A DNA stretch of 64,000 nt, taken from contig JACPTB010000005.1 of NCBI GenBank assembly GCA_016192995.1, forward strand, positions 133,503 through 197,502, in the 5' to 3' direction. The stretch comes from Candidatus Woesearchaeota archaeon (lineage in GTDB: Archaea; Nanobdellota; Nanobdellia; Woesearchaeales; DSVV01). The notes beneath the pieces are model-generated. The model saw only the letters and a program-made list of their open reading frames with translations, was not told the DNA's origin and did not search any database. The position numbers and the translations under genes were made by a program. Shown here in pieces: positions 6,257-63,561 of this stretch. Positions within the stretch are counted from its first letter, which is position 1. Each line of letters starts with the position of its first letter.

Positions 6257-6410
6257 GTACGTATTAAGTCTTCTTCGGGTTTAGCGCCAGTTCAGCTTAA
6301 ACGTATTATTTCGTTTGGATTTTTCTCTCTGGAACTCCGAAAAATCCACAAGGTAAGATTAAGAAGAGCTTCACAAAAGTAGGCGCTAAACCCCAGACTT
6401 AATACGTACG
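6257..6410. mobile_element. family-A palindromic MITE-like repeat (copy A1), flanked by 8-bp direct repeat GTTAAATA
   Basis: Termini GTACGTATTAAGTCT / AGACTTAATACGTAC; internal TTTAGCGCC.GTTCAGCTT and GGATTTTTCTCTCTGGAACTCCGAAAAATCC palindromes; recurs 6 times in the window. Confidence 0.8.
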
Positions 6411-6467
6411 TTAAATAACAATATTTATATACCAATGTATGGAAAAGTATACTTATGAGGTGAGTTC

Positions 6468-6662
6468 ATGAGAAAGATAGCTTTAATAGTGGTATTAATG
6501 CTGATAGCATTAATTGCAATAAGTTGTTCAAAAGGAGACGGAGAAGTAACTGATGTACCTCCGGCGTCTGCAGAAGATAGCGCTGGTGCTCCAGCAGATG
6601 GAGGAGAACAACCGACAGCAGCTCCGCCAGCATTGCCTGAAGATGCAACAGGTGGAGAATAA
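6468..6662 (+). CDS. small putative lipoprotein with Pro/Ala/Gly/Glu-rich low-complexity tail
   Basis: 64 aa; signal peptide then ISCSKG; locally GC-rich; the minus-strand ORFs at 6425-6670 overlap it and look spurious. Confidence 0.35.
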   Translation: MRKIALIVVLMLIALIAISCSKGDGEVTDVPPASAEDSAGAPADGGEQPTAAPPALPEDATGGE

Positions 6663-6709
6663 ATTAACATTGTTTTTCCTTTTTTCTTTTTCTCAATTTA
6701 TTTTGTAAA

Positions 6710-6719
6710 TATTTATTAA
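6710..6719 (+). promoter_or_regulatory. putative archaeal TATA box for tRNA gene
   Basis: TTTATTAA centred about 29 nt upstream of the tRNA 5' end. Confidence 0.3.
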
Positions 6720-6743
6720 TCAATGATTATGTCGTTAGTTTAT

Positions 6744-6860
6744 GCCCTTGTAGTATAGCCTGGATACTTGCTGACCTTGTCACGCAAGGATTAGCACGTA
6801 GTGCAAATAGTACGCAGCCCTGCGGAGGCTGCAGCCCGAGTTCGAATCTCGGCAAGGGCG
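6744..6860 (+). tRNA. intron-containing tRNA (117 nt; isotype unresolved; a 6-bp hairpin CUGCGG-AGG-CUGCAG suggests a long variable arm, possibly Leu/Ser)
   Basis: Perfect 7-bp acceptor stem GCCCTTG/CAAGGGC, D-arm GTAT-AGCCTGG-ATAC, T-arm CCGAG-TTCGAAT-CTCGG, discriminator G; about 30-40 nt more than a mature tRNA; followed by a T-tract. Confidence 0.6.
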
Positions 6861-6878
6861 TTTTTATCTTTTTTTCAT
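6861..6878 (+). terminator. T-rich tract (archaeal-type terminator) after tRNA
   Basis: TTTTTATCTTTTTTTC immediately 3' of the tRNA. Confidence 0.35.
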
Positions 6879-6891
6879 TATGATGCAACTA

Positions 6892-8097: not shown

Positions 8098-8272
8098 AGT
8101 TTTTAAGAATAAAGTACATTTATAAAGGTTTTGAAAATCAAGTATAAGGGCATAAATAACTCATATTGTTGCGGTACTGAGATATAATCTTGATACTTAT
8201 CCCTCTACCTTTCTTAAAATTACATAATTTAAACATCTAAATTTATAAATTAAAAAATTTAGAAAGTATTTT

Positions 8273-8706: not shown

Positions 8707-8738
8707 ATTATAAGTATTAGCTCTGTTATTTATAAAAT

Positions 8739-11247: not shown

Positions 11248-12255
11248 TTGCAACATGATGCTAAAGTTGAAGAATACTTCATTCTCCTTTCAACTCCCCC
11301 AGAAATGGATGAAACAATGAAAGAAAGAATTGAGTTCTCACATCTGATGAAACAGGAATGTGTAAGCAATAAAGAACTGGAAAATCATAGTCGAAAATAT
11401 CCTGCTTTATTTTTCAATACTTATTCAAAACAAGAAGTTTTTAACTTTCTGCAAAATAAACTTAGCCAATCTAAAACAAATGAAGAAATAGATCAGGAAA
11501 TAACAAAAATAGAACAAGGCTTGCAAAAAACAAAAAACCTGCATGAACAAATTTATGCTGAACTCCAAAATGCAGATTTGCACTATTACGCAAAAATACT
11601 TCAAAACAATGGTTTATACCGTTATAAGCTAAAGCACGTCTGGAGTGGTGCAGAGTACTTATGTTTGGATTTTATTTTAGAACTATGCAAACGAATTGGA
11701 ATTCATTTTGATGATTTTATTAAAACTTACATGTTTTCCGATATTCATGATTTTCTTTTAGGAAAAAGTGAATTGTCAAAAGCTGAAATAGAATCAAGGA
11801 AAAAATGTTTTGTTATTCACCATAAAAATCAGGCAACAAATATTTATTCTGGCGATGAAGCTATTGCTTATAAAAATAAGTTTATTATTTCAGAAGAAAA
11901 CTATAAGCAGCTATCAAACATAATTAAAGGAATGACTGCAAATAAAGGTAAAATTACCGCTAAAGCACGAGTAGTTCATGTTAAAGATTTGCAGCAATTT
12001 GCTTTAGATTGCCAGCAATTTCAAAAAGGTGAAATTCTGGTAACAACAATGACCTCTCCACTTATGGTACCTATCATTGAAAAAGCATCTGGCATTATTA
12101 CTGATGAAGGAGGCATATGTTCTCATGCAGCAATCATTTCAAGGGAGTTTGGCATTCCGTGCATTGTAGGAACAAATGGAGCATCGTTTAGCATTAAGAC
12201 TGGTGATGTTATTGAGTTGGATGGTGATAATAGTGTTATTAAAAAAATCTTGTAA
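11248..12255 (+). CDS. truncated PEP-utilising-enzyme (phosphohistidine swivel) domain protein, Rph/PEP-synthase-like
   Basis: C-terminal SGIITDEGGICSHAAIISREFGIPCIVGT...GDVIELDGDNSVIKKIL; the ORF is open upstream to 11143 with no ATG, so the start is uncertain; paralogue of 32834/34357/36141. Confidence 0.6.
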   Translation: MQHDAKVEEYFILLSTPPEMDETMKERIEFSHLMKQECVSNKELENHSRKYPALFFNTYSKQEVFNFLQNKLSQSKTNEEIDQEITKIEQGLQKTKNLHEQIYAELQNADLHYYAKILQNNGLYRYKLKHVWSGAEYLCLDFILELCKRIGIHFDDFIKTYMFSDIHDFLLGKSELSKAEIESRKKCFVIHHKNQATNIYSGDEAIAYKNKFIISEENYKQLSNIIKGMTANKGKITAKARVVHVKDLQQFALDCQQFQKGEILVTTMTSPLMVPIIEKASGIITDEGGICSHAAIISREFGIPCIVGTNGASFSIKTGDVIELDGDNSVIKKIL

Positions 12256-12282
12256 ATCATCTTAAAAACACTTAAAATTACC

Positions 12283-12436
12283 GTACGTAATAAGTCCTCC
12301 TTAGGTTTTAGCGCCGGTTCAGCTTTTGAAGTGTTCTTCAATTGGATTTTTCTCTCTGGAACTCCGAAAAATCCCCAATAAAGATATTGAGGAGCTTCAC
12401 AAAAGCAGGTGCTAAAACCCCAGACTTATTACGTAC
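12283..12436. mobile_element. family-A MITE-like repeat (A2), 8-bp TSD AAATTACC
   Basis: GTACGTAATAAGTCC...GACTTATTACGTAC with identical AAATTACC on both flanks. Confidence 0.8.
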
Positions 12437-12481
12437 AAATTACCGCAAACTATATAAACAAGTTATACTTGATGTTTAAAC

Positions 12482-22901: not shown

Positions 22902-23010
22902 TGGGCCCAGCCAGATTTGAACTGGCGATCTTCTCGAATTTGAGTTAATAAAGAGATTAAAACCTTATTAATACGTCAACGAGATGTCATAGCCGCTAGA
23001 CCATGAGCCC
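22902..23010 (-). tRNA. intron-containing tRNA-Val (anticodon GAC), about 36-nt intron near position 37/38
   Basis: Reverse strand: GGGCTCA-TG-GTC..GAC-A-TCTCG-TTGACG[intron]T-CGAGA-AGATC-GCCAG-TTCAAAT-CTGGC-TGGGCCC-A; all stems pair. Confidence 0.7.
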
Positions 23011-25802: not shown

Positions 25803-25965
25803 GGCTCTGTCCCAAATCTCGGCTAACGCCTCGGTTTTGGTGCCGTGATTATCCCACTTGTTGATAAGAACGAAAAAATTCCCATTGGAATTCCCTTTTT
25901 TCTCGATTATTTATTTGTAGGATAATCACAAGCATGGCACCAAAAACTACATTTGGGACAGAGCC
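25803..25965. mobile_element. family-B palindromic MITE-like repeat (B1), 9-bp TSD GTAGTAGTA
   Basis: GGCTCTGTCCCAAAT...GGTTTTGGTGCCGTGATTATCC...GGATAATCAC..GGCACCAAAAAC...ATTTGGGACAGAGCC; identical 9-mer on both flanks. Confidence 0.8.
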
Positions 25966-32833: not shown

Positions 32834-34342
32834 ATGGAATACACTCAAGGCTCATTGGAAAAAAATAAAAGAAATATTAATAACATTCAGTGGTATCATC
32901 AGCGTTTTGATGGCTGTCCTTTTTTCCTCCATGTTATTTCAGAAGCAGAATCAACTAATGAACAGCGAAAACATGGTTGGATATTTCAGCATAAGGTATG
33001 CTTTTACCATAATGATCGGGCAGATTGGTATATCGACATGCTTTCTATCAATAAAATTGCCAAAGAAATGCTCGAAGAATTGCAGCAAAATCCTTATTTA
33101 AGCAAACAATTAATTGCAGCATGGTATGAAGATGACAACAAATTTTATGAGATTTGTAAGAGCATAGATCGCCTTGAGGTGAATATATTGTCAGACAAAG
33201 AATTGTTTGAGTTATTCAAAATATTCTGCCAGCAAACAATAAAGCGAGAAACCTCAAGTTCAATTATAGACGGTTTTGCACTAGGTTCAGATACTTTTGT
33301 TGCAGAGCAGATTCAAGATTTTCTTAAGATTAAAGGCAGAGAAAAAGAATTCACTAAACTCTTTCCTATCTTAACAGCGCCAACAAAACAATCTTTTATC
33401 AATGAAGCTGAAGTAAGCTTGTTAAAAATAGCATTTCTTAAAAAAGACCATCAACAATATGCTGATTGCCTTAAAGATCATCAAGAGCGCTATTTCTGGA
33501 GTAAAAATAATTATGTTCAAGCGCATTATTTAGATCAAGCTTATTTTGAAAAAGAGATTAACCATCTATTGAACGACCACAAGACAAAGGAAGATTTACA
33601 ACAGCACATTGATAAGCTTGAAAGAACGCCAATAAAAAATAAAGAAGCAAAAACTAAATTAATTAAAGAACTACCGTTATCACCTTACATTATTAGTTTG
33701 CTTACCATATCAGATGACTTTACTTGGTGGCAGGATGAACGAAAAAAATCGACGTATTGGTATATTCATTATGGATGCAAGCTTTTGGAAGAGATTGCAA
33801 AGCGAAAAGGATTTACCCTTCATCAATTAAAGTATACAACTCCTCCAGAAATTTTATCAATGCTGGAAGGAAAAACGCATTACACACACGATCAACTTAA
33901 TGCAAGAATTAAAGAATGCGCATATTATTGGAATCCAGATCAATTTGAATGTATTACTGATAAAAAACAACTTGAAGAATTAAAAAATATTATTCTTAAA
34001 AAACAAGATTACTCCAAAATTACCTCATTTAAAGGGCTCTGCGCTAATTCAGGAAAAGTTAACGGTATGGTTAAAATTGTTAAAAGCGCAACAGAAGTTC
34101 ACAAAATTGAAAAAGGAGATATTCTTGTAGCAGTTATGACAAGACCAGATTATATTACTGGCATGAAAAAAGCAGCAGCCATTGTTACTAACGAGGGCGG
34201 AATTACCTGTCATGCAGCAATTGTCAGCAGGGAGATTAATATTCCCTGCATTATCGGCACAAAGATTGCAACTGAAGTGTTAAAAGATGGTATGATGATT
34301 GAAGTTGATGCGAATAATGGCATAGTTAAGATATTAAATTAA
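32834..34342 (+). CDS. Rph/PEP-synthase-like protein lacking ATP-grasp domain: substrate-binding-like helical domain plus phosphohistidine swivel domain
   Basis: C-terminal GDILVAVMTRPDYITGMKKAAAIVTNEGGITCHAAIVSREINIPCIIGT; central WWQDERKK..YWYIHYGCKLLEEIAKRKG resembles the Rph RIF-binding/swivel junction. Confidence 0.6.
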   Translation: MEYTQGSLEKNKRNINNIQWYHQRFDGCPFFLHVISEAESTNEQRKHGWIFQHKVCFYHNDRADWYIDMLSINKIAKEMLEELQQNPYLSKQLIAAWYEDDNKFYEICKSIDRLEVNILSDKELFELFKIFCQQTIKRETSSSIIDGFALGSDTFVAEQIQDFLKIKGREKEFTKLFPILTAPTKQSFINEAEVSLLKIAFLKKDHQQYADCLKDHQERYFWSKNNYVQAHYLDQAYFEKEINHLLNDHKTKEDLQQHIDKLERTPIKNKEAKTKLIKELPLSPYIISLLTISDDFTWWQDERKKSTYWYIHYGCKLLEEIAKRKGFTLHQLKYTTPPEILSMLEGKTHYTHDQLNARIKECAYYWNPDQFECITDKKQLEELKNIILKKQDYSKITSFKGLCANSGKVNGMVKIVKSATEVHKIEKGDILVAVMTRPDYITGMKKAAAIVTNEGGITCHAAIVSREINIPCIIGTKIATEVLKDGMMIEVDANNGIVKILN

Positions 34343-34356: not shown

Positions 34357-35922
34357 ATGAATATAAATATCCGAGAATTAGCTCATCAGAAATGGAGCAT
34401 ACAGGGATTTAATGCCTGCGCTAATTATATTTCTCTTGCAGGAATGTCCGGAATAGAGGACATGCATAAAGTATTAGGTTATGGGTATACACAGATTCTT
34501 CTTGCTTTTAAAAAAGATTATCTTGAATTCCACTATCTTGAAAAGGATTTTCAAGATATCGGCGCTGAATTCATGAAGCGCTATCGTCAAAATGAAAATT
34601 ATTTTACTAGTCTTCTTGGCAAAGATAAGGAATTCAATGAACAATCATCAAAAGTATATCAAGAAATTAAACAACAGCTTTTGTTACATGATAGAAATAC
34701 ATCAAAATGGTCAAAAGAAGATATTATCAGACTGCATCATCAAGCTTTTGAAGCATACCATAATGCGTTATCAGTCGCTCATATTATTGAAGGCATTACC
34801 TATGTTTTGGAAAAAGAAATACTCAGCCTATTAATCAAAGAACTTCAACTTAATGATACAAAACACGCTGCAAAAATAATGAATGAATTAAGCCAGCCAA
34901 TACGACCTTCATTTATTACCGAAGAACATATTGATCTCTTGAAAATTCTTAATATAATTGTTAATAATAATGAGATTCTCTCATTGTTTAAAACTAAAAA
35001 AACAGAAGAAATATTTGTTTTACTTCCTGAAACTTTGAAGAAAAAAATAGAGCAGCATGCAGAAACATATTTTTATTATCAGCTTAATTATTATCATGCT
35101 GAAAGTCTGAAGCCATTAGATTATGTTAAAGAATTACGGGAAATGATTTTACAAGAAACTGATCCACAACAACAAATTACGCAGGAAATACAGCGTTATA
35201 AAGAAAATATAACTCGGCGGGATCAAAAATTAAAAGAATTAAAACTAAGTCAAGAAGCAAAGCAACTTCTTGATCTTTCTGTTGAAATTCTTCATTGGCA
35301 GGATGACAGAAAAAAATTCATTCTTATTGGAGCTTATTATATGCATAAAACCCTTAAGCTCATTGCAGATACTTTTGCAATCCCCCTGGAATTGCTCAAA
35401 CGTTTACATCCTCCAGAAATAACTCTTGAACTATTGCACCATTTTGATGAAGCAGCAATAAAAAAGCGTGTCGATCATTTCATCTTATTTCATTGGTATG
35501 ATGATAACCATAAACAGATGAAAACAAAAGTATTTGATGAAACTGAATATAATTTTTTTATGGAGCAATGTCGCAAACAACATAACCAGATTGAAGATCT
35601 TCATGGTTTAAGCGCAAGTACCGGAAAAGCAATAGGAAAAGTAAGAATCTGTAAAACAAAAGAAGATATTGCGTTGTTTGAGCAAGGTGAAATTCTTGTA
35701 GCAAGTATGACAAGACCTGAATTTATTCCAGCAATGAAAAAAGCAGCAGCAATAGTAACTGATGAAGGAGGAATAACTTGTCATGCTGCAATTATCAGTC
35801 GTGAATTAAATATTCCCTGTGTTATCGGAACAAAAATTGCTACAAAAATTCTGAAAAATGGCATGATGGTTGAAGTCAGAGCAAATCACGGATTGGTTAA
35901 GATAATTTCATTAATCCTCTAA
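34357..35922 (+). CDS. Rph/PEP-synthase-like paralogue (no ATP-grasp) with phosphohistidine swivel domain
   Basis: GEILVASMTRPEFIPAMKKAAAIVTDEGGITCHAAIISRELNIPCVIGT; 14-nt spacing from the upstream paralogue. Confidence 0.6.
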   Translation: MNINIRELAHQKWSIQGFNACANYISLAGMSGIEDMHKVLGYGYTQILLAFKKDYLEFHYLEKDFQDIGAEFMKRYRQNENYFTSLLGKDKEFNEQSSKVYQEIKQQLLLHDRNTSKWSKEDIIRLHHQAFEAYHNALSVAHIIEGITYVLEKEILSLLIKELQLNDTKHAAKIMNELSQPIRPSFITEEHIDLLKILNIIVNNNEILSLFKTKKTEEIFVLLPETLKKKIEQHAETYFYYQLNYYHAESLKPLDYVKELREMILQETDPQQQITQEIQRYKENITRRDQKLKELKLSQEAKQLLDLSVEILHWQDDRKKFILIGAYYMHKTLKLIADTFAIPLELLKRLHPPEITLELLHHFDEAAIKKRVDHFILFHWYDDNHKQMKTKVFDETEYNFFMEQCRKQHNQIEDLHGLSASTGKAIGKVRICKTKEDIALFEQGEILVASMTRPEFIPAMKKAAAIVTDEGGITCHAAIISRELNIPCVIGTKIATKILKNGMMVEVRANHGLVKIISLIL

Positions 35923-36140: not shown

Positions 36141-37601
36141 TTGATGATGGTTACTTGGAAATGGGAATTTCAGAGAAATATGGATATAATTAAACGATTA
36201 GGATTTGCTCCTTCTTTTGCAGAATTTACGGGAATATGTGCTTATACCAGCAGGAATGGCAATATCAATTTTTATTGGAATGTTGAAGGAGCTGATAAAA
36301 AATCACTTGCATTAGTTGAAGCCATTAAAGCAGACTCCTCTTTTACCGAAAACTGGGTGCATGACCTTAATAAAAAAGCAGAACAGTGGAAGAAATTCAC
36401 TGAAACTATTTATTTAACAAATTTAACAAATCCAGCAAAACTTTCAGATACAGAACTCTTTACTTTTTATCAACAATTCCTTGATTTACATCCGCAAATT
36501 GCTTCATTTGCAGCATGGATTAGAATAATTATTCATCAAGGGGTTCTTACTTTTGAGAAAATACTGAAAGAAAAAATAAAAGATGAGGCTGAATATAAAA
36601 ATGCATTAACGGTTTTGACTTCAACACCAAAACAAAGTTTTAATGGAGAAGAAGAGGAAGCTTTTTTAGAACTTGCATTTAACATTTTAAATAAAGAGCA
36701 GAATTTTGAAGAACTTAATGAACTCTCTCAACCATCATTAGCTCTTCTCACAAAACATCGGAATAATTATTGCTGGATTCCATGCGGTTATTATGATGAA
36801 CCAGCGCATGATTTAGATTATTATTTTCATCGATTGCTCCGTGTGAAGAAAGATCGAGTGCATTCACGACAAGCGTTAAGCACCTTGCAGGAACTATCTG
36901 AGCTTATTGAACAAAAACAATATGTCCTTTTGCAGAATCTTAAACTCAGCAAAGAAGCTCTGCGTTTAATGGAATGCCTCCAGGAATGTGTTTATTACAA
37001 AGATTATGTTCGAGGAGTTCTCAATAAAGGCTATTATCTTTGCTATCCTTTGTTTGAAGAATTAGGGAAACGCGTGAAGCTAAGCATGCTTGATGTCAAA
37101 TTTTTGCTTGAGGAAGAATATGAACAAGCATTGTTTTCCAAAACAGATTTTACCGCCTTGATAAGCAAGCGAAAAAAGTTCCATATAATGGTTGTTGAAA
37201 AGGGAAAACCAATTAAGCTGATGTATGGGAAAGAAGCAGAACAATTAGTTCAGGAAATTGAAGGCAAGCTTGATGACGTTAAAGAAATCAAAGGCATGTC
37301 TGCAAGTCCAGGCTACGCTAAAGCGAGAGTAAGAATTTTGAAAAATCCAGCAGACATACAGAATGAAACTCATGATTTTATCCTCGTTGCCAGCATGACA
37401 ACACCTGAATTTATTGTAGCCATGCAAAAAGCATTGGCTATTGTAACTGATGAAGGCGGTATAACCTGCCATGCAGCGATAGTTGCCCGGGAGATGAACA
37501 AACCTTGTGTTATAGGCACTAAATTAGCCAGTAAAGTTCTTAAGGATGGTATGATTGTAGAAGTTGATGCTGATAGAGGGATTATCAAGATAGTTTCTTA
37601 G
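36141..37601 (+). CDS. Rph/PEP-synthase-like paralogue (no ATP-grasp) with phosphohistidine swivel domain
   Basis: HDFILVASMTTPEFIVAMQKALAIVTDEGGITCHAAIVAREMNKPCVIGT. Confidence 0.6.
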   Translation: MMMVTWKWEFQRNMDIIKRLGFAPSFAEFTGICAYTSRNGNINFYWNVEGADKKSLALVEAIKADSSFTENWVHDLNKKAEQWKKFTETIYLTNLTNPAKLSDTELFTFYQQFLDLHPQIASFAAWIRIIIHQGVLTFEKILKEKIKDEAEYKNALTVLTSTPKQSFNGEEEEAFLELAFNILNKEQNFEELNELSQPSLALLTKHRNNYCWIPCGYYDEPAHDLDYYFHRLLRVKKDRVHSRQALSTLQELSELIEQKQYVLLQNLKLSKEALRLMECLQECVYYKDYVRGVLNKGYYLCYPLFEELGKRVKLSMLDVKFLLEEEYEQALFSKTDFTALISKRKKFHIMVVEKGKPIKLMYGKEAEQLVQEIEGKLDDVKEIKGMSASPGYAKARVRILKNPADIQNETHDFILVASMTTPEFIVAMQKALAIVTDEGGITCHAAIVAREMNKPCVIGTKLASKVLKDGMIVEVDADRGIIKIVS

Positions 37602-41932: not shown

Positions 41933-42148
41933 GGCTCTGGTGAAAATCTTTCAGGTTTTAGCGCCGGTTCAGCTTTTTAAGTGGATTTCGATTGGATTTT
42001 TCTCTCTGGCACTCCGAAAAATCCTCGATATCTCCTAAGAAGAGCTTCACGAAATAGGCGCTAAAACTATACGAATCAAAGAAAGTGTTGGATAACATTT
42101 GACTTTCTTTGATGGTATATTGCTGCGCAATACATTTTCACCAGAGCC
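41933..42148. mobile_element. hybrid MITE-like repeat (H1): family-B-type termini GGCTCTGGTGAAAAT enclosing a family-A core
   Basis: GGCTCTGGTGAAAATCTTTCAGG+TTTTAGCGCCGGTTCAGC...GGATTTTTCTCTCTGGCACTCCGAAAAATCC...GCGCTAAAACT...ATTTTCACCAGAGCC; fills the divergent promoter region between the signal peptidase and nmd3 genes. Confidence 0.75.
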
Positions 42149-43207: not shown

Positions 43208-43380
43208 AGAGAACTTTGCAAAATACTCGCATAGCTCGGGTTACTGCCAGTTCGCATTGAGATATATGCTTGACAAAGCAATTTTCTCTCTGGAACTCCG
43301 AAAATTGCCCGATAAGTATTTCGAAAATGCTCACAAAATAGGCAGTAACCATAATTTTGCAAAGTTCTCCGAAGAAGAAC

Positions 43381-45416: not shown

Positions 45417-45616
45417 GGCTCTGGTGAAAATCTTTCAGGTTTTATTAAAAATCACTATTTTTAATCCCTGAGATCCTTCGGATTCAGGTAGCGCCGGTTC
45501 AGCTTTTGAAGTGTAGTTTGATTGGATTTTTCTCTCTGGAACTCCGAAAAATCCCCAAAATGAAGTTGAGGAGAGCTTCACAATATTGGCGCTAAAACTG
45601 CATTTTCACCAGAGCC
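45417..45616. mobile_element. hybrid MITE-like repeat (H2) with TSD GCGA(C/T)AAAC
   Basis: B-type termini plus A-type core plus extra internal palindrome; near-identical 9-mers on both flanks. Confidence 0.75.
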
Positions 45617-45975
45617 GCGATAAACCATTCTTTCACAAGTATCCCAACATATAAAGAACTATCAATAATACAATGATAAGAGCTAAAGCTACCCTATCCC
45701 TCTTTTTATAAAATGCATATACAATCGCTACTCCAACAAGAGTAATACCCACAAATTCAAGGCCTTTCATCAATTCTCACCAACAGCGATAAATAATGAT
45801 CCAATACCTATTAATGCTGTACCCACAATAGTCATTCGATTAGCCAATAATAAAAAACCTACTGCACCTAATACACCACCAATCATTCTTAAAACAAAGG
45901 AGTTTAATACTTTACCTTTCTTGTCAAACATACAAATTTATAGATGACAATACTTATATTTTTTTCCGTTTTATG

Positions 45976-46126
45976 TGCGTAATAAGTCTTATTAGGTTTT
46001 AGTGCCGGTTCAGCTTTTGAAGTGTATATCAATTGGATTTTTCTCTCTGGAACTCCGAAAAATCCCCACCGGGTTATAAGAAGAGCTTCACAATATTGGC
46101 GCTAAAACCCCAGACTTATTACGCAC
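45976..46126. mobile_element. family-A MITE-like repeat (A3; variant termini GTGCGTAATAAGTCT)
   Basis: Same core as A1/A2; its right end supplies the last codons and the stop codon of ribH. Confidence 0.7.
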
Positions 46127-47083: not shown

Positions 47084-47246
47084 GGCTCTGGTGAAAATGT
47101 AGTTTTTGGTGCCATGCTGGTGATTATCCTTCCAATTAATACGTGGGAAAAAAGGAAGTTCCAGTAGGAATTTTTTCCTTGTTAAACTTAGGTGAGATAA
47201 TCACGGCACCAAAACCGAGGCGTTAGCCGAGATTTTCACCAGAGCC
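47084..47246. mobile_element. family-B MITE-like repeat (B2)
   Basis: GGCTCTGGTGAAAATGTAGTTTTTGGTGCCATGCTGGTGATTATCC...GGATAATCACGGCACCAAAACCGAGGCGTTAGCCGAGATTTTCACCAGAGCC; abuts the ribK stop and the ribC start. Confidence 0.8.
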
Positions 47247-47989: not shown

Positions 47990-49396
47990 TTATTTCTTCT
48001 TTGGATTTAATTCCAGATATGCTTTTCCTTTATCTTCATCATACGTAAAGGTAAATGTTCCATCATTTGGCGCTGGGAAACATATTTGACCTTCTGGTGT
48101 TACCGTTGCACTAGGTATAGTAATCATAGGAGCAACTATTGGACCAGTATATTTTAATGGCACACAGGCACCATCTTTACAATACGTAGCAGAAGGGCAA
48201 TCAATTTCACCTGCTTTTTGAATAATGTTTTTACCATAATCACAGAAATACTCAGTAATTTTTGTTGGTTGATTTTTTACACATTCATCAGTAAGTTTTT
48301 CCCATTTTCCATAATCATTTTTACCATAAACAGTTCCCTGCACATAGGGATTAATATATCCATACTTGCTTACTGGTTCAAATGATTTATAGTTTTTATC
48401 AGTGACATCTGTGTCTGAACAAAGAATATCTTGAGCAACTTTCGCTGGAGCTACTTTTGCAGGTGGAGGAGTTTTCGGTTTAATATCTTTACAGTCACAC
48501 AATCCTGACCATCCTTCTAACATAGGATCTGCGGAATTGCTCTCTTCACTCATTAATCCTTTATTAATCAGTTCCTTCCATGAAGAATCTGAAGCTTTAT
48601 TCCCCCAGTCAGTTGAACTATAATAAAAACTATTTTTAGCCTCTAAATGTGCAGTTTTGACTTCGCCATTGCTTAAAGTGATTATGATATCAACATAAGG
48701 AACTGTTGCACAGGTTAAACCTGGTTGGCAAATATCTCCATACCACTGCTTGATTTCAAGTTCATTTCCAACTAACCCATCATATTTGCTTAAAACAGAT
48801 TTACTTGGAAACAAATAATGCTTAAATTCACAGGTTGTTTTACCTAAACAGTTAATAACATATTGAGGTAATGAATCTTCAAGAGCTTTTGCTTGTTCAG
48901 TTGTTCCTTTCTTTAACGTACCTGTTTTTACACCTATTCCAGGCTCGCCTGGAACAACAACATTAATATCTGAAATAGCTAAATTAGTTTTAAAGTACAT
49001 AGAAACGAAATATCCTGGCAAAGTTGTAGTATCAGATCCTGAAGATTCAAAAATAACATTCTGCCCTGGCATAACTGCATTTTTAAAAAATGCAGTATCT
49101 CTATAGACATATACCGTACCACTGACTTTTCCTTGCAGTGGCTGATCTTCGACAAGCTCCTGTGGATTAGAAAATTTTTGAGAAGGTTTTTTACTAGTAT
49201 CATATGCAGGAAGTGCCCTTGATACTTCTCTCACATCTCTCGCTGCAAATCCAGTAATACTATCAGAACTTGATGTTCCAGAATCACCTATGAAGATGAT
49301 TGCAACAATAACAACAGCTAAAACACCATACGCAATATATGCTTTATATTCCATGTTCTTTTTGAGAATACTTGATTTATATATTTTTTCATCCAA
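47990..49396 (-). CDS. membrane-anchored extracellular Cys-rich protein
   Basis: N-terminal TM helix, about 20 Cys, no known motif. Confidence 0.4.
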   Translation of the reverse strand: MDEKIYKSSILKKNMEYKAYIAYGVLAVVIVAIIFIGDSGTSSSDSITGFAARDVREVSRALPAYDTSKKPSQKFSNPQELVEDQPLQGKVSGTVYVYRDTAFFKNAVMPGQNVIFESSGSDTTTLPGYFVSMYFKTNLAISDINVVVPGEPGIGVKTGTLKKGTTEQAKALEDSLPQYVINCLGKTTCEFKHYLFPSKSVLSKYDGLVGNELEIKQWYGDICQPGLTCATVPYVDIIITLSNGEVKTAHLEAKNSFYYSSTDWGNKASDSSWKELINKGLMSEESNSADPMLEGWSGLCDCKDIKPKTPPPAKVAPAKVAQDILCSDTDVTDKNYKSFEPVSKYGYINPYVQGTVYGKNDYGKWEKLTDECVKNQPTKITEYFCDYGKNIIQKAGEIDCPSATYCKDGACVPLKYTGPIVAPMITIPSATVTPEGQICFPAPNDGTFTFTYDEDKGKAYLELNPKKK

Positions 49397-49397
49397 T

Positions 49398-49639
49398 GTA
49401 CGTATTAAGTCTGGTGGTTTAGCGCCTACTTTTGTGAAGCTCCTCTCGTATATTTATCGGGGATTTTTCGGAGTTCCTTGCCGATAGGCAAGTCTTATAA
49501 TCCCAGACGCAAGCCAAATTATGACTCCTTGATTTATATTATTGAGGGAGTCGGGATTATATTTATAGAGAGAAAAATCCAATTGAACTAACTTGAAAAG
49601 CTGAACCGGCGCTAAACCCGAAGAAGACTTAATACGTAC
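49398..49639. mobile_element. family-A MITE-like repeat (A4) carrying a nested insertion; 8-bp TSD CATCCAAT
   Basis: Termini GTACGTATTAAGTCT/AGACTTAATACGTAC; about 85-bp internal extra palindrome; identical flanking 8-mers; fills the whole divergent intergenic region. Confidence 0.8.
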
Positions 49640-49679
49640 CATCCAATAATTATTTAAACAACTGCTTATTAATCCGATC

Positions 49680-52207: not shown

Positions 52208-52257
52208 GTACGTAATAAGTCTTCTATGATTTTAGTGTCGGTTCAGCTTTTGAAGTG
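52208..52257. repeat. solo left half of a family-A repeat
   Basis: GTACGTAATAAGTCTTCTATGATTTTAGTGTCGGTTCAGCTTTTGAAGTG with no right half. Confidence 0.6.
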
Positions 52258-52272
52258 AAATTCAAAAAATAA

Positions 52273-53358: not shown

Positions 53359-53588
53359 AGTATCATCCTAATATTTATTTTGTAGTTTTAAAATGTTTTG
53401 AATTAATGATTCAAGTGTATATTAGTAATAGAAACTTTCATATATTGCTAATATATAAAATGTTGTGATAAAAATAAATTAGTTCCTGCATGGAAATGGC
53501 TGCTGAAGGATTGAAGTGTATTACCTTAAGTGTTTCTTGTCCATTTTGATTGGCACCCTTCAGTGCATATCTTTTTAAAACAATGATA

Positions 53589-56057
<2,469 letters not shown>

Positions 56058-56170: not shown

Positions 56171-57094
56171 ATGTTTCAGAAACGTAAACCACAGCAATTA
56201 TGGACAGATTATCTTGTTGAACGGCTTCACGATGAAGGGTACACACAGGTTAAACCATTCTCAGAATGTGAAAGAGCTTATTTTCCTGATGATATACATA
56301 GGGAACATCATATTACCTTAGAAACAATAATAAGTAATGGTGATGTAGAAATAATTTTACAAAGAGGATTTGATACAGTTGATATTGGTGAACAAGGACT
56401 AAGAACTGCTGCTGGATATTATACACCAGATCGTCTTACTGAAATTCTTAAAAATGCCAAATCGTATGATGATATACCATTTATTATAATGCATCAACTC
56501 GGGTTGCTTAGAGAATCTCTCATGTTAATTTTCAAAGATAAAAGTGGGTGGGAAGAGCTGGTAACACTCCAGTTTGAAGATTATAGAGTATTACGTGGGT
56601 CTATTTCTAGTTCAATAGCTGCACCTCATTTGTTGAGAGAATATTTACAAGAAGCAGATAATGTTGTTCAATTTACTCCCCAAAGATTCGCAAATGCTCT
56701 TGTTAAATATGTTAAAACCACCGTAAAACCTGTTGGTGAATCATCTTCTGCCAGAGAAGAACGTCAAGAATTATCAAGATGCTATCAACGACCAGAAAAT
56801 GCTGATTATGGTGCTGGAGTAGTACATGAGGAAGTAGCTGCACAATTAGAGAAAAATCCTCGTGAAATTAGATTAAAGAGTTTTGAAGGTCAAAATATCT
56901 ATGAACTCTACCTATTAAAAAATAATCATCAACCAAAAATAAGAGGGAGGGGATATACCTTACGAGGCGTGGTTGATAAAGTAGAAGTAGTTAAAAGAGT
57001 AAGGAAGTTATTTCAGCGTATACGCACAACACCTCAAGATATGAGAATTGTATATCAAAAAGATGGTCAAAAATATGCTATTTATACGAGATAA
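56171..57094 (+). CDS. hypothetical protein
   Basis: 307 aa, GC-richer, no recognisable motif. Confidence 0.4.
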   Translation: MFQKRKPQQLWTDYLVERLHDEGYTQVKPFSECERAYFPDDIHREHHITLETIISNGDVEIILQRGFDTVDIGEQGLRTAAGYYTPDRLTEILKNAKSYDDIPFIIMHQLGLLRESLMLIFKDKSGWEELVTLQFEDYRVLRGSISSSIAAPHLLREYLQEADNVVQFTPQRFANALVKYVKTTVKPVGESSSAREERQELSRCYQRPENADYGAGVVHEEVAAQLEKNPREIRLKSFEGQNIYELYLLKNNHQPKIRGRGYTLRGVVDKVEVVKRVRKLFQRIRTTPQDMRIVYQKDGQKYAIYTR

Positions 57095-59659
57095 TATGTT
57101 CTCCTTATCCACTTGACTAATTCATTCACTATAATCATGCTTAAACCAGTAACAAAAATAATACTCCAATCAGTAAAACTTAATGGGACTGCATGAAAAT
57201 AACCTGCAATACGTGGAACTGAAATAATGATAATAGTTGAAAGTATTGAAATAATAACTCCACCAAGCAAGAATTTATTTGAAAGCAAATGTTTATTAAA
57301 AATACTCTGTTTGCTATCACGGCAATTAAATATATTAATCATTTGACAAACAATGATAGTTACAAACGGAATAGTAGCTGCTTTTTCAGGCATTCCTTGA
57401 TATAAAAACCAAGAATAGAGTATGATAGCGCTGAGAGCAATAACAACGCTATTAGCAAGAATCCTGATTAATATTTCTTTCCCTAAAATTGACTTTGTTC
57501 TATCTCTTGGTTTTTCTTTCATGATATCGTGAGATACAGGATCAACGCTTAAAGCAAGCGCTGGCAATACTTCTGTTCCCAGATCAATCCATAATATCTG
57601 CACTGCCGACAACAAATTCCCAACACCAGGTAATAACGAGAACATTACAACAAAAAACTCAGCAGTTATTCCTGAAAACACGTAGAGTATAAACTTGATA
57701 ATGTTATTATAGATTATTCTCCCTTCTTTAACAGCATGTACGATAGTTGAAAAGGAATCATCAAGCAAAACCATTTTAGAAGCTTCTTTGCTGACATCAG
57801 TTCCTGTTCTGCCCATAGCAACACCGATATCTGCCTTTTTCAAAGCAGGAGCATCATTAACGCCATCTCCAGTCATAGCAACAATATGCCCTTGCTCTTG
57901 CAGCAGCGTAACTATCCTTAATTTTTGTTGCGGATTAATATGAGCAAACACACGAACAGTTTTCAAAGAATCTTTTAATTGTTCATCAGTCATGGTTAAG
58001 AGTTCATCCCCTGTAATCACTGAATCTCCACCAGCAATAATACCAACCTCTTTTGCTATGGCAGATGCTGTTGTCTTTTGATCGCCAGTTGTCATGATTA
58101 CGGTGATTCCTGCAGTTTTACATAATCGTATGGCTTCTTTGACCTCAGAACGCGGCGGATCAATCATCCCTACAAAACCGACAAAGATCATGTTTTGCTC
58201 TAATTGTTTTTTGTCACTTAGTTTATACGATGACAATGATTTGTAAGCGCATGCAAGAACACGTAGAGCGCGATCACCCATTGCATGATTTACTTCAAGA
58301 ATTTTCTTTTTCTCTTGAGAAGTAAATTTTTTAACCTTTCCATTTATTTTAATATGCGTGCAATGAGCAACAACTTCATAGGGAGCGCCTTTAGTATAAG
58401 AAAGATATTTTTTAACAGTTTTATGAACAGTAGTCATGATTTTACGTTCAGAAGTAAAAGAGATTTCATCGATCCTTTGAAAAGTATTTTTAAGAACATC
58501 AACATTAAGATTGCTCTTTGCTGCAGCAACAAGGAGTGCAAGCTCAGTCGGATCGCCAACAAGAGTATTCTCTGAAAACTGAGCATTATTGCACAGGCTC
58601 GATATCTGTAAAATATCTCGGTAGTTACAATTATTTTTTGTTCCTGGAACAAAAATTTCTTTAACGGTCATTTCATTTTTAGTCAATGTTCCTGTTTTAT
58701 CGGTGCAAATAACCGTAGTGCAGCCAAGCGTTTCAACAGAAGAAAGCTTTCGAATAATAGCATTTTGCGCTGCCATTTTTTTAACACCCATAGCTAAAGC
58801 AATAGTAACTGTAGCAGGCAATCCTTCAGGAACAACAGCAACTGCTAATGCAATGGAAAATAAAAATACCTCATGTAAGACCGAAAGAGAAAATCCTGAT
58901 TGCCATAAACTATGACCAATAACTAATAAAGATATGCTTACGGCAACCTTAGCAATAAACATGCCAATCTTATTTAATTCTTGCTGAAGAGGACTCTCGT
59001 CAAGAGAGACTTTTGTCGTGATATGGGCAATCTTTCCAAGTTCTGTATTCATACCTATACTGGTGATCACAGCTTTAAGGTGCCCGGATTGCAGCAAAGT
59101 TCCAGCATAGAGACTGTTTTCCTTCGCCATCGCCATAAGCTATTTTAGATTGAGGGAGTGATTCACCTGTCAAAGATGCTTCATTGACATGGACATTAAC
59201 TGCTTCCAAGATAACAGCATCTGCAGGGATGTTAGTTCCTTCTTCAAGGAGGATAATATCTCCAACAACTAAATCACGCACAGATAGTACACTGATAGTT
59301 CCATCACGTAATACTTGGCAGGTTGAAGCAACCATTTTTTTCAATGCTTCTATTGATTTTTCTGCTTTAAATTCCTGTATAAATCCTATGCAAATATTAA
59401 TCAAAACTATAATCAGAATTAACCACGCATCTGAACCAGCTCCGGTAAGCCAAGCAACAAATGCTGCGATAATTAAGAGTATAATAAGCATGTCTTTAAA
59501 CTGATGAAAAAAGAGTCTCAATACATTAAAACCAGTTGTCCTTTTAAGTTCGTTATAACCATATTGTTTTTGCCGCGCTTGAACTTCAGATTGGCTTAAG
59601 CCTCGAACCTTAGTATTAAACTTCTTATAAAACCTTGCAGAATAACTATGTTGAGCCAT
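57082..59659 (-). pseudogene. cation-transporting P-type ATPase split by a frameshift (ORFs 59075..59659 and 57082..59136 overlap out of frame)
   Basis: N-terminal ORF ends ...LTGESLPQSK; second ORF continues NSLYAGT... with DKTGTLT, TGDGVNDAPALKKADIGVAMG; the frames differ by 1 around 59100-59136. Confidence 0.65.
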
Positions 59660-59703: not shown

Positions 59704-59866
59704 GGCTTCGGTGAAAATGTAGTTTTTGGTGCCATGCTGGTGATTATCTTTCAAATTAATGAGCGAGAAAAAAGGAAATTCCAATAGGAATTTTTTCCTT
59801 CTTATCAACAAGTGGGATAATCACGGCACCAAAACCGAGGCGTGAGCCGAGATTTTCACTGAAGCC
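59704..59866. mobile_element. family-B MITE-like repeat (B3; termini GGCTTCGGTGAAAAT), TSD about TATTTTAT
   Basis: Conserved B core; sits in the divergent promoter region between the ATPase and rSAM genes. Confidence 0.75.
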
Positions 59867-59928
59867 ATATTTTATATCATTTTATATAAAGAATAAGATT
59901 AGCTACTACAAGTAGGAGGTTTATCTAC

Positions 59929-61293
59929 ATGATTAATGTTCTTTTAGTCTATCCACCATTCTGCACACCTGCTGCTCCACCTTATTCAATAACTTATTTA
60001 CATACGTTTCTTCGAAATAATCTTCCAGAAGAATATACCGTAAGTGTGATAGATCTCAATATTTTTTTTCATAATAAGAAATTTCAAGAATATCATACTT
60101 ATTAAAAAAAATATGATAAAAAAACTTATTCAGGAAAAACTAAGCAATTTCTCGCATTAACAAATCAATGCTACGCAGAAAACAATAAAAAAGTGGTTAA
60201 TAACTTAGAACCTGAATTACTAGAGGAATCTCTCCGTTATATTTTAAGTAAAGCGCCTGATGTTGTTGCATTCAGCATAGTTTATTCGAGCCAAGCATTT
60301 TATGCCTATGCTTTGCTTAAAGAGTTAAAAAAACAAGGCATTAAAACAGGTATAGGCGGCCCATGCATTAATAACAAACTAAAAGGGATTGCAGATGTTA
60401 CGTGCAGTAATGAAGTTGTGTTTTTGGAATATATACTTACTATACTTAAATATTCCATAGATCATAATGCATTGAAGACAAATAGAATCCTTGATTTTTC
60501 AATATATAATCTCGAAGATTATTTTACTTTTTCTCCAGTATTGTCTTTAAAAACATCAAATAGCTGTTATTATAAACAATGTACTTTCTGCACCCACCAT
60601 GGCAATGCGCAATATAGAGAACACTCTTTGGAAGATATTAAGAAAACTATTGTCAAATCACAACAAAAATATTTCTTTCTTGTTGATGAAATGATCCCAA
60701 AAAACAGGTTATTAGAAATTGCCGAATTACTTAAGCCGTTAAATATCATCTGGATGTGCCAACTGCGTCCGACAAAAGATTTAGACAAAACAACCTTGGA
60801 AACATTAAGAAAAGCAGGATTGAAGGCAATTTTATGGGGTGTTGAATCTGCAAGTGATCGCATTTTGCAGCTGATGAAAAAAGGCACTAATAAAAAAGAT
60901 ATTAGTTTAGTTATTAACAATGCAAAAGAAGCTGGCATTACTAATGTAACCTATATTATGTTTGGGTTTCCTACTGAAACAAAAGAAGAGTTCATTGAAA
61001 CCATTGATTTTTTAAAGGCGCATGAAAAAAGTATTGACTTAATCTCGCCAACAATTTTTGGTTTGCAAAAAGATGCGCCGATGTTTAACAAGCCTGAGCA
61101 ATATGGCATCACCCAAATAATAACTGAACAAAGAACTATTCTTGAGCCGAAAATTACCTATAAACTTTCTCAAGGATTATCGCATGAACAGGTGATAAAG
61201 CTCAGCAAAGCTTACAAGCAAACACTTCAAAAAATTAATAAATTTCCTAAAGAAATGAATTTCTTCCGAGAGCATATGTTAGTGTTGTTATAG
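59929..61293 (+). pseudogene. B12-binding radical SAM protein interrupted by one in-frame TAA at 60103-60105
   Basis: GGAGGT 8 nt before ATG 59929; MINVLLVYPPF... B12-domain start; same frame continues through the TAA into ORF 60193..61293 with CYYKQCTFC radical-SAM cysteine triad. Confidence 0.6.
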
Positions 61294-61453
61294 GCAGTGT
61301 AGAAAATCTCGGCATAGCCTCGGTTTTGGTGCCGTGATTATCTCACTTGTTTATAAGAAGGAAAAAATTCCTATTGGAATTTCCTTTTTTCCCACATATT
61401 AATTTGAAGGATAATCACAAGGGTGGCACCAAAAACTACATTTTCTACACTGC
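61293..61453. mobile_element. family-B MITE-like repeat (B4; termini GGCAGTGTAGAAAAT), 9-bp TSD TGTTGTTAT
   Basis: Conserved B core; identical 9-mers on both flanks; starts right at the rSAM stop codon. Confidence 0.75.
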
Positions 61454-61498
61454 TGTTGTTATGATCAACTATTTAAACAACTCTTTTTTCTCATAATT

Positions 61499-61981
61499 AT
61501 GACACTAGAAGTTATTGGTTTGTTAGAGAAACATCATATTGCATACAAACTCCATACTCATAAAGCTGTATTTACCTGTGCTGAAGCAGAAGAACATTGT
61601 AAACATATTCCTGGATTAGCATGCAAAAATCTTTTTCTTAAAGATAAATATACCCATCAATGCTATCTTGTTATTCTTCCTGCTGCTAAGAAAATGGATT
61701 TTAAAAAATTTGAGAAAATGCTCGGCAGTAAGAAAATAATGTTTGGAGATGAAAATCAATTAATGGATATTCTGAAGTTAACAAAAGGTGCTGTTAGTCC
61801 ATTTGGATTATTGAACGACACCGAACTGAAAACAGAAGTGTATATTGACCAAGAAGTTTGGGAAGCAGACATTGTTAGTTTTCATCCTAATATCAATACT
61901 GAAACATTGGAATTAAGCAAGGAGATGTTTCAGAAGTTTATTAAAACATTGAAGCATATTTACACGGTAATTTTATTTTAA
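61499..61981 (+). CDS. YbaK/ProX-family aminoacyl-tRNA deacylase
   Basis: KNLFLKDK..YLVIL ... LTKGAVSPFGL. Confidence 0.6.
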   Translation: MTLEVIGLLEKHHIAYKLHTHKAVFTCAEAEEHCKHIPGLACKNLFLKDKYTHQCYLVILPAAKKMDFKKFEKMLGSKKIMFGDENQLMDILKLTKGAVSPFGLLNDTELKTEVYIDQEVWEADIVSFHPNINTETLELSKEMFQKFIKTLKHIYTVILF

Positions 61982-61991
61982 CTTTCCTTGC

Positions 61992-62723
61992 TTAACTGAA
62001 AAAGAGTATTCCGTCATAAATAAATTTAATGCTGACTGCTGCAATTGATAACAAAACTATTATTCTAAATTTATCTTGAGGAATTTTTGCAACAATCTTT
62101 TTACCTATATAAGACCCAATAACGGCGATTACAACGAGGAGAGGAATAATTCCATAAAACTCTGAAGGCAAAAATCCACTGCTTAAATAAACTGGAAGCC
62201 TTGTTGCATCTACTGCAAGCGCAATTGCCGCAGCTGTTGCGATGTATAAAGACTTTTCAAGGTTATATGATGCGAGAAATGCTCCTCGTATTGCCCCTCC
62301 TGTGCCTATAAGTCCTGCAAAGAATCCTGAAAAAGAACCGCCATAAATATTATTGATGACTGTTGGTTTTAATGAAAGCTTTTTTGTTCTGAATGAGATT
62401 ACTACAAAGCAGAGTAGAAATAAACCCAATATCATCTTTAAAATCTGAGGAGAAAAATAATTAACTGAAAAAGCTCCAAGTAAGGTTAGAATTACACTTG
62501 GTATTCCAAACCAGAACAGCAATTTTTTGTCAAGGGCTTTTCTAAAAAAAGTAATTCTTCCCAAATTCCCTGCAATATGAAACACTGCAACAAAGACAAG
62601 CGCTGTTTTGAATTCAAAGAAAAACAATGCAATCGGCAAGAAAATAGTTGATGATCCAAATCCCGCTATAGTTCCAGCAATTCCTGCAAACAATGCCCCT
62701 ATGAATAATAGCATACTTACCAT
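61992..62723 (-). CDS. TauE/SafE-family sulfite/anion exporter
   Basis: 243 aa, 7-8 TM helices, duplicated G-rich helices (AGIAGTIAGFGSS, GLIGTGGAIRG). Confidence 0.55.
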   Translation of the reverse strand: MVSMLLFIGALFAGIAGTIAGFGSSTIFLPIALFFFEFKTALVFVAVFHIAGNLGRITFFRKALDKKLLFWFGIPSVILTLLGAFSVNYFSPQILKMILGLFLLCFVVISFRTKKLSLKPTVINNIYGGSFSGFFAGLIGTGGAIRGAFLASYNLEKSLYIATAAAIALAVDATRLPVYLSSGFLPSEFYGIIPLLVVIAVIGSYIGKKIVAKIPQDKFRIIVLLSIAAVSIKFIYDGILFFS

Positions 62724-62768
62724 GTCTTATATAATTTCATGTAAGTTTAAAAATATTGTGCATGGTAA

Positions 62769-63362
62769 TTATTCTTTTAAGTAATTAATTATCTGCTGAA
62801 TACTAATTACTCTTAGATCATGTTCTTTTGCAAACTCAAATGTTTGTTCTTGATTCATCATAGTACCATTGTCATTCATTAATTCTGAAATAATTGCAAC
62901 GTCCTTTAATCCTGCTAATCTGCACAACGTAATAGAAGCTTCAGTATGCCCTTGACGTTCAAATAAAGAATCTCTGCTTATTAACGGAAAAATGTGCCCT
63001 GGCCTTGCCAAATTTTGCGCAGTTCCTGAAACAAGCTTTTGGATAGTTATTGTCCGGTCATGGCTTGAAACACCTGTTGTCATTGCTGGATCAAGGGCAT
63101 CAACTGATACGGTAAAGTTAGTGCCATGTTTTTCAGTATTATCCTGCACCATTAAAGGTAATTTTAATTCCTCACCACGTTGTTTAGTTAAGGGAACGGT
63201 TAAAATACCAGAGGTATTTTTAATCATAAATGTTATTTTTTCTTCAGTAACATATTCTGCTGCCAAGATAAGATCAGACTCACACTCTCGAGTTTCATCT
63301 ATAACAATAATCATAGTTCCTTGTTTGAATAAGGTTATTGCTTCTGGAATCGATGAGTACAT
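62769..63362 (-). CDS. ribB: 3,4-dihydroxy-2-butanone-4-phosphate synthase
   Basis: IVIDETRECESDLILAAE, HTEASITLCRLAGL. Confidence 0.75.
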   Translation of the reverse strand: MYSSIPEAITLFKQGTMIIVIDETRECESDLILAAEYVTEEKITFMIKNTSGILTVPLTKQRGEELKLPLMVQDNTEKHGTNFTVSVDALDPAMTTGVSSHDRTITIQKLVSGTAQNLARPGHIFPLISRDSLFERQGHTEASITLCRLAGLKDVAIISELMNDNGTMMNQEQTFEFAKEHDLRVISIQQIINYLKE

Positions 63363-63408
63363 AGTATAAATAAGAAATAGTTATCAATTTAAATACTTAC
63401 TTAAACAG

Positions 63409-63561
63409 TACGTAATAAGTCTTCTTTAGTTTTAGCGCCGGTTCAGCTTCAACATATTATTTCGATTGGATTTTTCTCTCTGGCACTCCGAAAAATCCCC
63501 TATATAAAATTAAGAAGAGCTTCACAAAAGCAGGCGCTAAAACCCCAGACTTATTACGTAC
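63409..63561. mobile_element. family-A MITE-like repeat (A6), TSD about TTAAACA
   Basis: GTACGTAATAAGTCT...AGACTTATTACGTAC between ribB and archease. Confidence 0.8.

Follow-up and report, generated by a model that had tools for sequence, protein, structure and literature searches.

Miniature hairpin elements with differing termini at a fixed distance from TATA boxes in an archaeal genome segment

A stretch of 64,000 nucleotides from a Candidatus Woesearchaeota archaeon (contig JACPTB010000005.1, positions 133,503 to 197,502; referred to below as the window) contains several copies of a palindromic repeat of about 150 bp, here called Family A. This raises the question of what the repeat is and how it came to lie where it does. 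A sequence-only reading of the window had interpreted it as a miniature inverted-repeat transposable element (MITE) with 8-bp target-site duplications (TSDs), moved by a transposase encoded elsewhere. In the analysis presented here the repeats were found to be real, but Family A is one terminus variant within a much larger superfamily. Because of its terminal inverted repeats (TIRs), its TSDs of constant length, its small non-coding size and its dispersed, unrelated intergenic sites, we consider it probable that Family A is a non-autonomous MITE, that is, a TIR transposon mobilised in trans.

Family A, its relatives and their insertion sites

When the 15-nt terminus GTACGTAATAAGTCT was scanned across the window with up to 3 mismatches allowed, 12 matches were found against 1.4 expected by chance, and 11 of them are the paired ends of five Family A copies together with a lone left end at 52208. 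Of the six copies in the window, five are full and one is truncated, and all are intergenic (Table 1); the positions given for the copies in the sequence-only reading were reproduced to within 1 nt. In every copy 14-16 of the 16 terminal bases are complementary. A full copy measures 152-154 bp, apart from the 49398 copy, which is longer due to an 89-nt foreign insert (49478-49566) inside its apical loop. The copies are just 80-90% identical to one another, which argues against a recent burst. With regard to the direct repeats that had been read at the copy ends, three are perfect 8-mers (GTTAAATA, AAATTACC and CATCCAAT) and one matches at 7 of 8 positions, but the 45975 copy has none; this copy is probably old or rearranged.

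The exact 31-nt centre of Family A occurs six times in the window (0 expected) and had no match in 185,579 species genomes, taken as one genome per species of GTDB. Relatives were found with a shorter, invariant loop motif, TTTTCTCTCTGGNACTCCGAAAA, which is present at 49 loci: 19 in genomes (Nanoarchaeota, Woesearchaeota and 'Methanosarcinales' metagenome-assembled genomes, MAGs) and 30 in metagenomes, many of these from groundwater. Every match is a long-hairpin element of 150-165 bp with the same build. In viral contigs the core motif had 0 matches, and the 16-nt terminus pattern gave chance single matches only.

Two features of these loci can be mentioned here. Four of them (L003, L006, L016 and L019) lie on contigs of MAGs labelled Methanosarcinales, and either these are mis-binned DPANN contigs or the family is present outside DPANN. 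At three loci (L024, L036 and L043) one element flank is held in common and the other flank differs, a sign that copies may have recombined or that the assemblies may be chimeric at the repeat.

The terminal repeats of the subfamilies are wholly different from one another (GGCGGCATTGAAAAGTCT; GGCGTTATTGAAAAGTCC; GGCTTTGTCCGAAAAGTC; GGCTCTGTCC...; GGGGTTGTTGCGAAATTC). Among the relatives from other genomes, 23 of 39 have TSDs with at most one mismatch, and every TSD sequence is different. The sequence-only reading had made its case depend on the direct repeats persisting once more copies were aligned; they do persist among at least 40 further relatives, being 8 or 9 bp long according to terminus type and differing at each locus. 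Elements with GGCGKYATTG termini have TSDs of 8 bp, and those with GGCTYTG or GGGGTTG termini have TSDs of 9 bp. The 45417 copy in the window combines a Family-A-like core with GGCTCTG ends and a 9-bp TSD, therefore TSD length tracks the termini and not the type of core, as would be expected if the termini decide which enzyme acts.

Two elements outside the window bear on the role of the termini. The element at L005:4797-5114 has the same terminus class (GGCTGCATTGAAAAGTCC) around an unrelated interior, with a TSD matching at 7 of 8 positions and a TATA box at offset 14. Its interior has 53% GC (36% for the locus), folds strongly (z = -8.35) and has no Rfam match, and it may be a structured-RNA cargo. 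The element at L039:13759-13849 is a 91-nt short form of the GGCTCTGTCC subfamily, without the apical hairpin and with an 8-bp TSD, TTTTAATG. From these two elements, it seems to be the termini and not the core that carry mobility and targeting, and the termini alone appear to suffice for insertion and for targeting.

The target sites were compared over 48 insertions, giving 96 flanks that were read outward from the element ends and scanned for the exact archaeal TATA consensus TTTAWAWA. Offset 14 holds 11 exact matches, offset 15 holds 8 and offset 17 holds 5, compared with 0-2 for nearly all the others between 0 and 49, and 19 of the 34 exact matches lie in 2 of the 50 offsets (binomial p = 2.9e-18). 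When up to one mismatch was allowed, a TATA box was located at offsets 13-16 in 31 of the 48 insertions, compared with 1-11 of 48 in ten control windows. Offsets 14 and 15 correspond to the TSD (8 or 9 bp) plus a constant spacer of 6 nt. The composition of this spacer (purine, A/T, A, A, N, A) is A-rich and resembles the consensus of the archaeal transcription factor B recognition element (BRE).

The gene on the TATA side points away from the element, and its ATG is located 27-34 nt past the start of the TATA box in 27 of 38 cases, with a peak at 29-32 nt. This spacing indicates working promoters that drive leaderless genes. Promoters on the right and on the left of the element are about equally frequent (16 and 15 cases), therefore the targeting is independent of element orientation. 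Orientation relative to the neighbouring genes is likewise unbiased, with 7 co-oriented tandem, 7 anti-oriented tandem, 8 divergent and 4 convergent arrangements.

The spacing rule is obeyed by four of the five full Family A copies. At the 6257 copy the layout is GTTAAATA-acaata-TTTATATA, with the promoter TATA box at 6424-6431, 6 nt past the right TSD, and at the 12283 copy it is AAATTACC-gcaaac-TATATAAA, with the TATA box at 12451-12458 and the ATG 31 nt further on. The 63408 copy has the same spacer and TATA layout on its left side (63386-63393, minus strand, 6 nt past the left TSD), serving the gene at 62769-63362. The 49398 copy, the sole Family A copy in the opposite orientation, is flanked by divergent promoters, one on each side, with TATA boxes at 49376-49383 (minus) and 49653-49660 (plus). 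The strictly intergenic location of Family A, correctly described in the sequence-only reading, is a consequence of this placement 6 bp upstream of TATA boxes, which that reading had missed. It is likely that the TATA-proximal placement reflects a real choice of target.

The hairpin core

The centre of Family A had been read as a palindrome, which it is not: a 9-bp stem (GGATTTTTC / GAAAAATCC) closes an asymmetric 13-nt loop. On folding, the element gave a single long hairpin (z = -8.7 as RNA, -7.3 as DNA), a possibility that the sequence-only reading had raised. For an alignment of 33 non-redundant elements, one long hairpin was also obtained with RNAalifold, with compensatory double changes in 31 of its 43 pairs. 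In a structure defined by 42 named pairs, the share of paired cells is 97.2%, compared with 35-48% when the partners are slid by 1-3 columns, and both sides have changed in 30 of the 42 pairs. The observed covariation score was reached by 0 of 500 shuffles, and at pairs 52:136 and 55:133 all four base combinations are present.

Within this structure, the apical loop UCUCUGGAACUCC is conserved across all subfamilies. So is an internal motif, of which 5'-GGYTCRGCT forms the left side and AGCYTCRCA-3' the right; in it Y:R and R:Y pairs co-vary, with all four combinations present, around a fixed TC/TC mismatch. An extra bulge or mini-hairpin is found in the left arm only and is kept in all subfamilies. 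These shared asymmetries indicate that the subfamilies descend from one asymmetric ancestor, with the complementarity of the arms kept by selection. On this evidence the arms would not have been formed afresh as perfect palindromes.

Such a fold could be taken as the product of host selection on a structured or cis-regulatory RNA, such as a protein-binding hairpin, a terminator or an insulator, with mobility being incidental. In its favour, even subfamilies with completely diverged termini share the apical loop and the GGYUCRGCU / AGCYUCRCA motif with little or no change, the covariation and the fold score are strong, and the runs of T4-5 on both strands at the centre are possible archaeal termination signals in either direction. 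If selection acted on one RNA strand, G.U should be tolerated much more readily than A.C. However, G.U and A.C are equally frequent here, with 13 cells each among about 1,340 (one helix-end pair left out), so there is no enrichment of wobble pairs. Rfam gave no match at gathering score for the elements in the window, with only sub-threshold chance matches (E up to 10) on copy 2, and the 7:7 and 16:15 counts given above show no preference in orientation to genes or promoters. Furthermore, elements without the apical hairpin (L039:13759-13849) or with another interior (L005:4797-5114) still have TSDs. We consider this RNA explanation unlikely, although it survives better than the other alternatives below. 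C/D-box and H/ACA small RNAs were also tried as candidates and were rejected, since the candidate boxes are not conserved within the window family.

The strand-symmetric changes, together with the unbiased orientation and the lack of an Rfam match, point to a constraint at the DNA level. The hairpin would then be maintained as DNA and not as one functional RNA strand. Candidates for such a constraint are paired protein sites on the two arms, a cruciform or single-stranded DNA fold, or a requirement for folding of both strands.

Mobilisation, target choice and comparison with known systems

The explanation that we favour, that of a MITE with a preferred target, can be set out as follows. Family A would be a terminus variant of an old superfamily of 150-165-bp long-hairpin elements in DPANN-type archaea. 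A transposase encoded elsewhere would bind both TIRs and make staggered cuts in the target, 8 bp apart for Family A and 9 bp apart for elements with GGCTYTG or GGGGTTG termini. As the flanks show, insertion is not random: the cut falls on the 8-9 bp directly upstream of the 6-nt BRE-like spacer and the TATA box of a leaderless gene, leaving the core promoter intact on one side of the element, which can be inserted in either orientation. To find its site, the enzyme may read the BRE/TATA sequence or its bent shape, or it may recognise promoter-bound TBP/TFB. Tethering to TBP/TFB as the actual mechanism is a tentative proposal. The interior may work as an imperfect hairpin with fixed asymmetric loops, serving as paired protein-binding sites, as a cruciform or as a fold that joins the ends.

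A bolder version, which we put forward with similar reserve and think possible but doubtful, is that the superfamily could be the first archaeal transposon known to be tethered to the pre-initiation complex, its transposase reading promoter-bound TBP/TFB, or the bend that these make in the DNA, and integrating at the upstream edge of the BRE. The core could be a second module, such as a docking site for a host factor or the transposase, or a bidirectional insulator, that allows the element to be a harmless neighbour of promoters. Such a role would explain the persistence of the core through exchanges of the termini.

The TATA peak could also be a product of survivorship, if elements entered AT-rich DNA more or less at random and, in short intergenic spacers, were tolerated only where they came to lie just outside the BRE/TATA. 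DPANN genomes are compact, so that most intergenic spacers hold a promoter, and the 80-90% identity of the copies means that there has been time for selection. However, selection would allow any site upstream of the BRE, and exact TATA boxes number 0-1 per offset at offsets 18-49 compared with 19 at offsets 14-15. The peak moves by exactly 1 nt with the length of the TSD (8 or 9 bp) while the spacer stays at 6 nt, and the same spacing is seen at insertions with hundreds of bp between the element and its other neighbouring gene. As the whole explanation survivorship is improbable, a little more so than the RNA explanation, although it may contribute to the peak.

An element of the REP/BIME type (repetitive extragenic palindromic / bacterial interspersed mosaic element) or the IS200/IS605 type, moved by an HUH transposase (RAYT or TnpA), would account for a long hairpin with conserved loops and, perhaps, for the shared orientation of 8 of the 9 core-bearing (Family A type) copies in a window with one-way cumulative GC skew, but single-strand HUH transposition leaves no TSD and has no need of TIRs whereas fixed-length TSDs and perfect TIRs are present here, the orientation bias is drawn from nine copies and drops to 10:3 with the sister family described below included, and no Y1/HUH gene was found in the window by Pfam scans of the large open reading frames (ORFs), which makes it very improbable.

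For the MITE that we favour, the mobilising enzyme would be a DDE transposase acting in trans, for which IS1595/Merlin-like and ISL3-like enzymes are candidates. The statement of the sequence-only reading that no transposase is encoded in the window was borne out, as neither Pfam scans, run on all the large ORFs, nor tblastn detected one. The query domains for tblastn were five IS1595-family DDE domains (ISPna2, ISOar1, ISH4, ISNwi1 and ISAba36) taken from PMC8101967, and against the window and 51 loci they gave nothing below E = 1. Only MITE pairs were returned when inverted repeats were sought over distances of 600-4000 bp, or lone termini with patterns and nhmmer end-profiles.

Merlin elements have 5'-GG termini and TSDs of 8 or 9 bp, and members of IS1595 usually have 8-bp TSDs (PMC8101967). 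The elements described here are similar to IS1595 (ISPna2 group) and Merlin in their 8- and 9-bp TSDs and in the sister subfamilies that start with GGCTCTG, GGCTTTG or GGCGKYATTG. ISOar1, of the ISPna2 group, has the ends GGCTCAATTCGCATTAGCTATGCAC, beginning GGCTCAATT..., and the TSD TATATCTT. The elements described here differ in that no DDE_Tnp_IS1595 gene was found with their ends in the window and the 51 loci. ISL3 (GGCTCTT ends, 8-bp TSD) and IS256 (8-9-bp TSD) fit about equally well. The comparison of TSD length with insertion sequence (IS) families, which the sequence-only reading had suggested, is thus compatible with IS1595 and about equally with ISL3 and IS256.

Several points weigh against the account given here. 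Family A itself starts with GTACGT and lacks the GG ends of IS1595/Merlin, so that the assignment is weakest for the family with which we began, and for this reason Family A is assigned to no IS family. With only 80-90% identity its copies are old, and the family may be extinct in this genome. Neither the window nor the 49 related loci (about 0.4 Mb) nor the viral contigs yielded an autonomous element with matching termini. No empty site or insertion polymorphism was seen: all six short-read contigs that carry the gene beside copy 2 stop 57 nt past the gene, 30 nt into the element, and a search for empty sites by way of other flanking proteins returned no record. Selection could also add to the TATA peak, by the loss of insertions that damage promoters or genes, though not at one exact offset.

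Prokaryotic MITEs, such as the Correia elements of Neisseria and SM1-SM4 of Sulfolobus, are non-coding elements of about 80-200 bp with TIRs, fixed-length TSDs, many intergenic copies and a long hairpin, and Correia elements carry a conserved internal protein-binding site. In comparison with MITEs in general, the elements described here differ in having a core conserved over phylum-level diversity with swapped termini and covarying stems around asymmetric loops, and in being inserted at a defined distance from a TATA box, not at a short target word such as TA. With regard to target choice, integration at promoters at a fixed short distance is known from Ty3 (via TFIIIB, that is, TBP and Brf1), Dictyostelium TRE5-A and S. 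pombe Tf1. The likeness is that a core promoter bound by TBP-family factors is left intact. It is a likeness of behaviour only, as those are eukaryotic retroelements, with or without long terminal repeats, that have known tethers, whereas here the element is an archaeal TIR DNA element.

No report of TATA-proximal transposon targeting in archaea was found in the literature, and no description of a core that is kept DPANN-wide with exchanged termini, or of covarying arms around fixed asymmetric loops. In a bulk census of prokaryotic MITEs, one Woesearchaeal genome, with 105 MITEs per Mb, ranks with the densest of the archaea (PMC11602168). As far as its catalogue-level count goes, that census describes no conserved core, covarying stems or promoter-adjacent placement. 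What appears to be new here is the exchange of termini around a DPANN-wide core, the covarying arms and the single distance to the TATA box; the MITE as a kind of element was already known.

DPANN genomes are very small and gene-dense, yet 13 elements are present in the 64-kb window. Precise insertion upstream of the BRE/TATA would explain how such a density can be carried without killing the host. The placement offers a sequence-level handle on the recognition of archaeal promoters by something beyond the transcription machinery, with each copy pointing to a BRE/TATA and to the start of a leaderless gene, and this in organisms for which culture on their own is not yet possible. With its swapped termini around a covarying core, the superfamily is also well suited to telling apart the constraints that act on a hairpin as DNA and those that act on it as RNA. 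A transposase with this specificity, if one is found, could possibly be used as a tool for promoter-proximal insertion in archaea, and if tethering to TBP/TFB is true, the system would be the counterpart, among archaeal DNA transposons, of Ty3 and its targeting via TFIIIB.

Other elements, neighbouring genes and host

The 13 elements of the window comprise Family A, elements with the same core and other termini, and a sister family (Table 1). The sister family has GGCTCTGGTGAAAATGTAG ends, and its centre (GAAAAAAGGAAGTTCCAGTAGGAATTTTTTC in the 47084 element) shows a relationship to that of Family A when the latter is reverse-complemented.

Table 1. Elements of the superfamily in the window, with positions counted from its first letter
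Element	Position	Strand	Remarks
Family A copy 1	6257..6409	+	153 bp; TSD GTTAAATA at 6249-6256 and 6410-6417
Family A copy 2	12283..12436	+	154 bp; TSD AAATTACC at 12275-12282 and 12437-12444
Family A copy 3	45975..46126	+	152 bp; termini GTGCGTAATAAGTCT; without TSD and without TATA at the usual offset
Family A copy 4	49398..49639	-	TSD CATCCAAT at 49390-49397 and 49640-49647
Family A copy 5	63408..63561	+	154 bp; TSD CTTAAACA / ATTAAACA, 7/8 matching
Truncated Family A copy	52208..52265	+	left arm only; remainder deleted
Family-A-like core, termini GGCTCTGGTGAAAATC	41933..42148	+	hairpin insert of about 67 nt in right arm, 42067-42133
Family-A-like core, termini GGCTCTGGTGAAAATC	45417..45616	+	9-bp TSD GCGACAAAC / GCGATAAAC; TATA at offset 15 on left
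Divergent superfamily member, termini GAACTTTGCAAAAT	43211..43367	+	same invariant apical loop
Sister-family element	47084..47246	+	termini GGCTCTGGTGAAAATGTAG; centre GAAAAAAGGAAGTTCCAGTAGGAATTTTTTC
Sister-family element	59704..59866	+	9-bp TSD CTATTTTAT / ATATTTTAT, 8/9 matching; exact TATA at offset 14
Sister-family element	25803..25965	-	exact TATA at offset 15
Sister-family element	61293..61459	-	pairs with 59704-59866 as long inverted repeats around a radical-SAM gene

Three of the elements carry small foreign inserts. In addition to those at 49478-49566 and 42067-42133, the 45417 copy has one of about 45 nt in its left arm (about 45445-45489), and none of the three recurs elsewhere in the window. 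The 89-nt insert at 49478-49566 has inverted ends of its own, TATAATCCC(A)GAC. The cumulative GC skew falls steadily over the window, and nine copies are too few to link their orientation with the direction of replication.

Between two inverted sister-family elements (59704-61459) lies a radical-SAM / B12-binding gene (60193-61293), in a layout like that of a composite transposon. The sister-family element at 59704 also abuts a P-type cation ATPase that is split into two overlapping ORFs at 57082-59136 (-) and 59075-59659 (-), one for the N-terminal part and one for the remainder. A frameshift, a pseudogene and a sequencing error are all possible readings of the split.

The window has a GC content of 33%. 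It is archaeal, as it encodes NMD3 and a CTP-dependent riboflavin kinase, contains a tRNA gene at 22902-23010 (-) with an intron of about 38 nt beside the anticodon loop (Rfam tRNA, 51 bits), and has genes with a BRE/TATA promoter some 30 nt ahead of the start codon, as expected of leaderless genes; it is probably from a DPANN archaeon. A bacterial origin, which was prompted by sigma-54-type AAA+ and bPH domains, was overruled by these same features. An identification with the SM MITEs of Sulfolobus, prompted by the low GC and the tRNA intron, was dropped because the relatives are found in DPANN MAGs.

In its bacterial mode, ARAGORN misses the tRNA at 22902-23010 and calls a doubtful 98-nt tRNA-Ile(AAT) at 53369-53466. 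The gene for DNA gyrase B, at 53589-56039 (-), is split by an intein, with an Intein_splicing domain between GyrB and Toprim. Four paralogous genes with a terminal PEP (phosphoenolpyruvate)-utilising mobile domain are located at 11248-12255, 32834-34342, 34357-35922 and 36141-37601; three of these genes form a tandem array, and a 227-nt repeat family is made up of their 3' ends.

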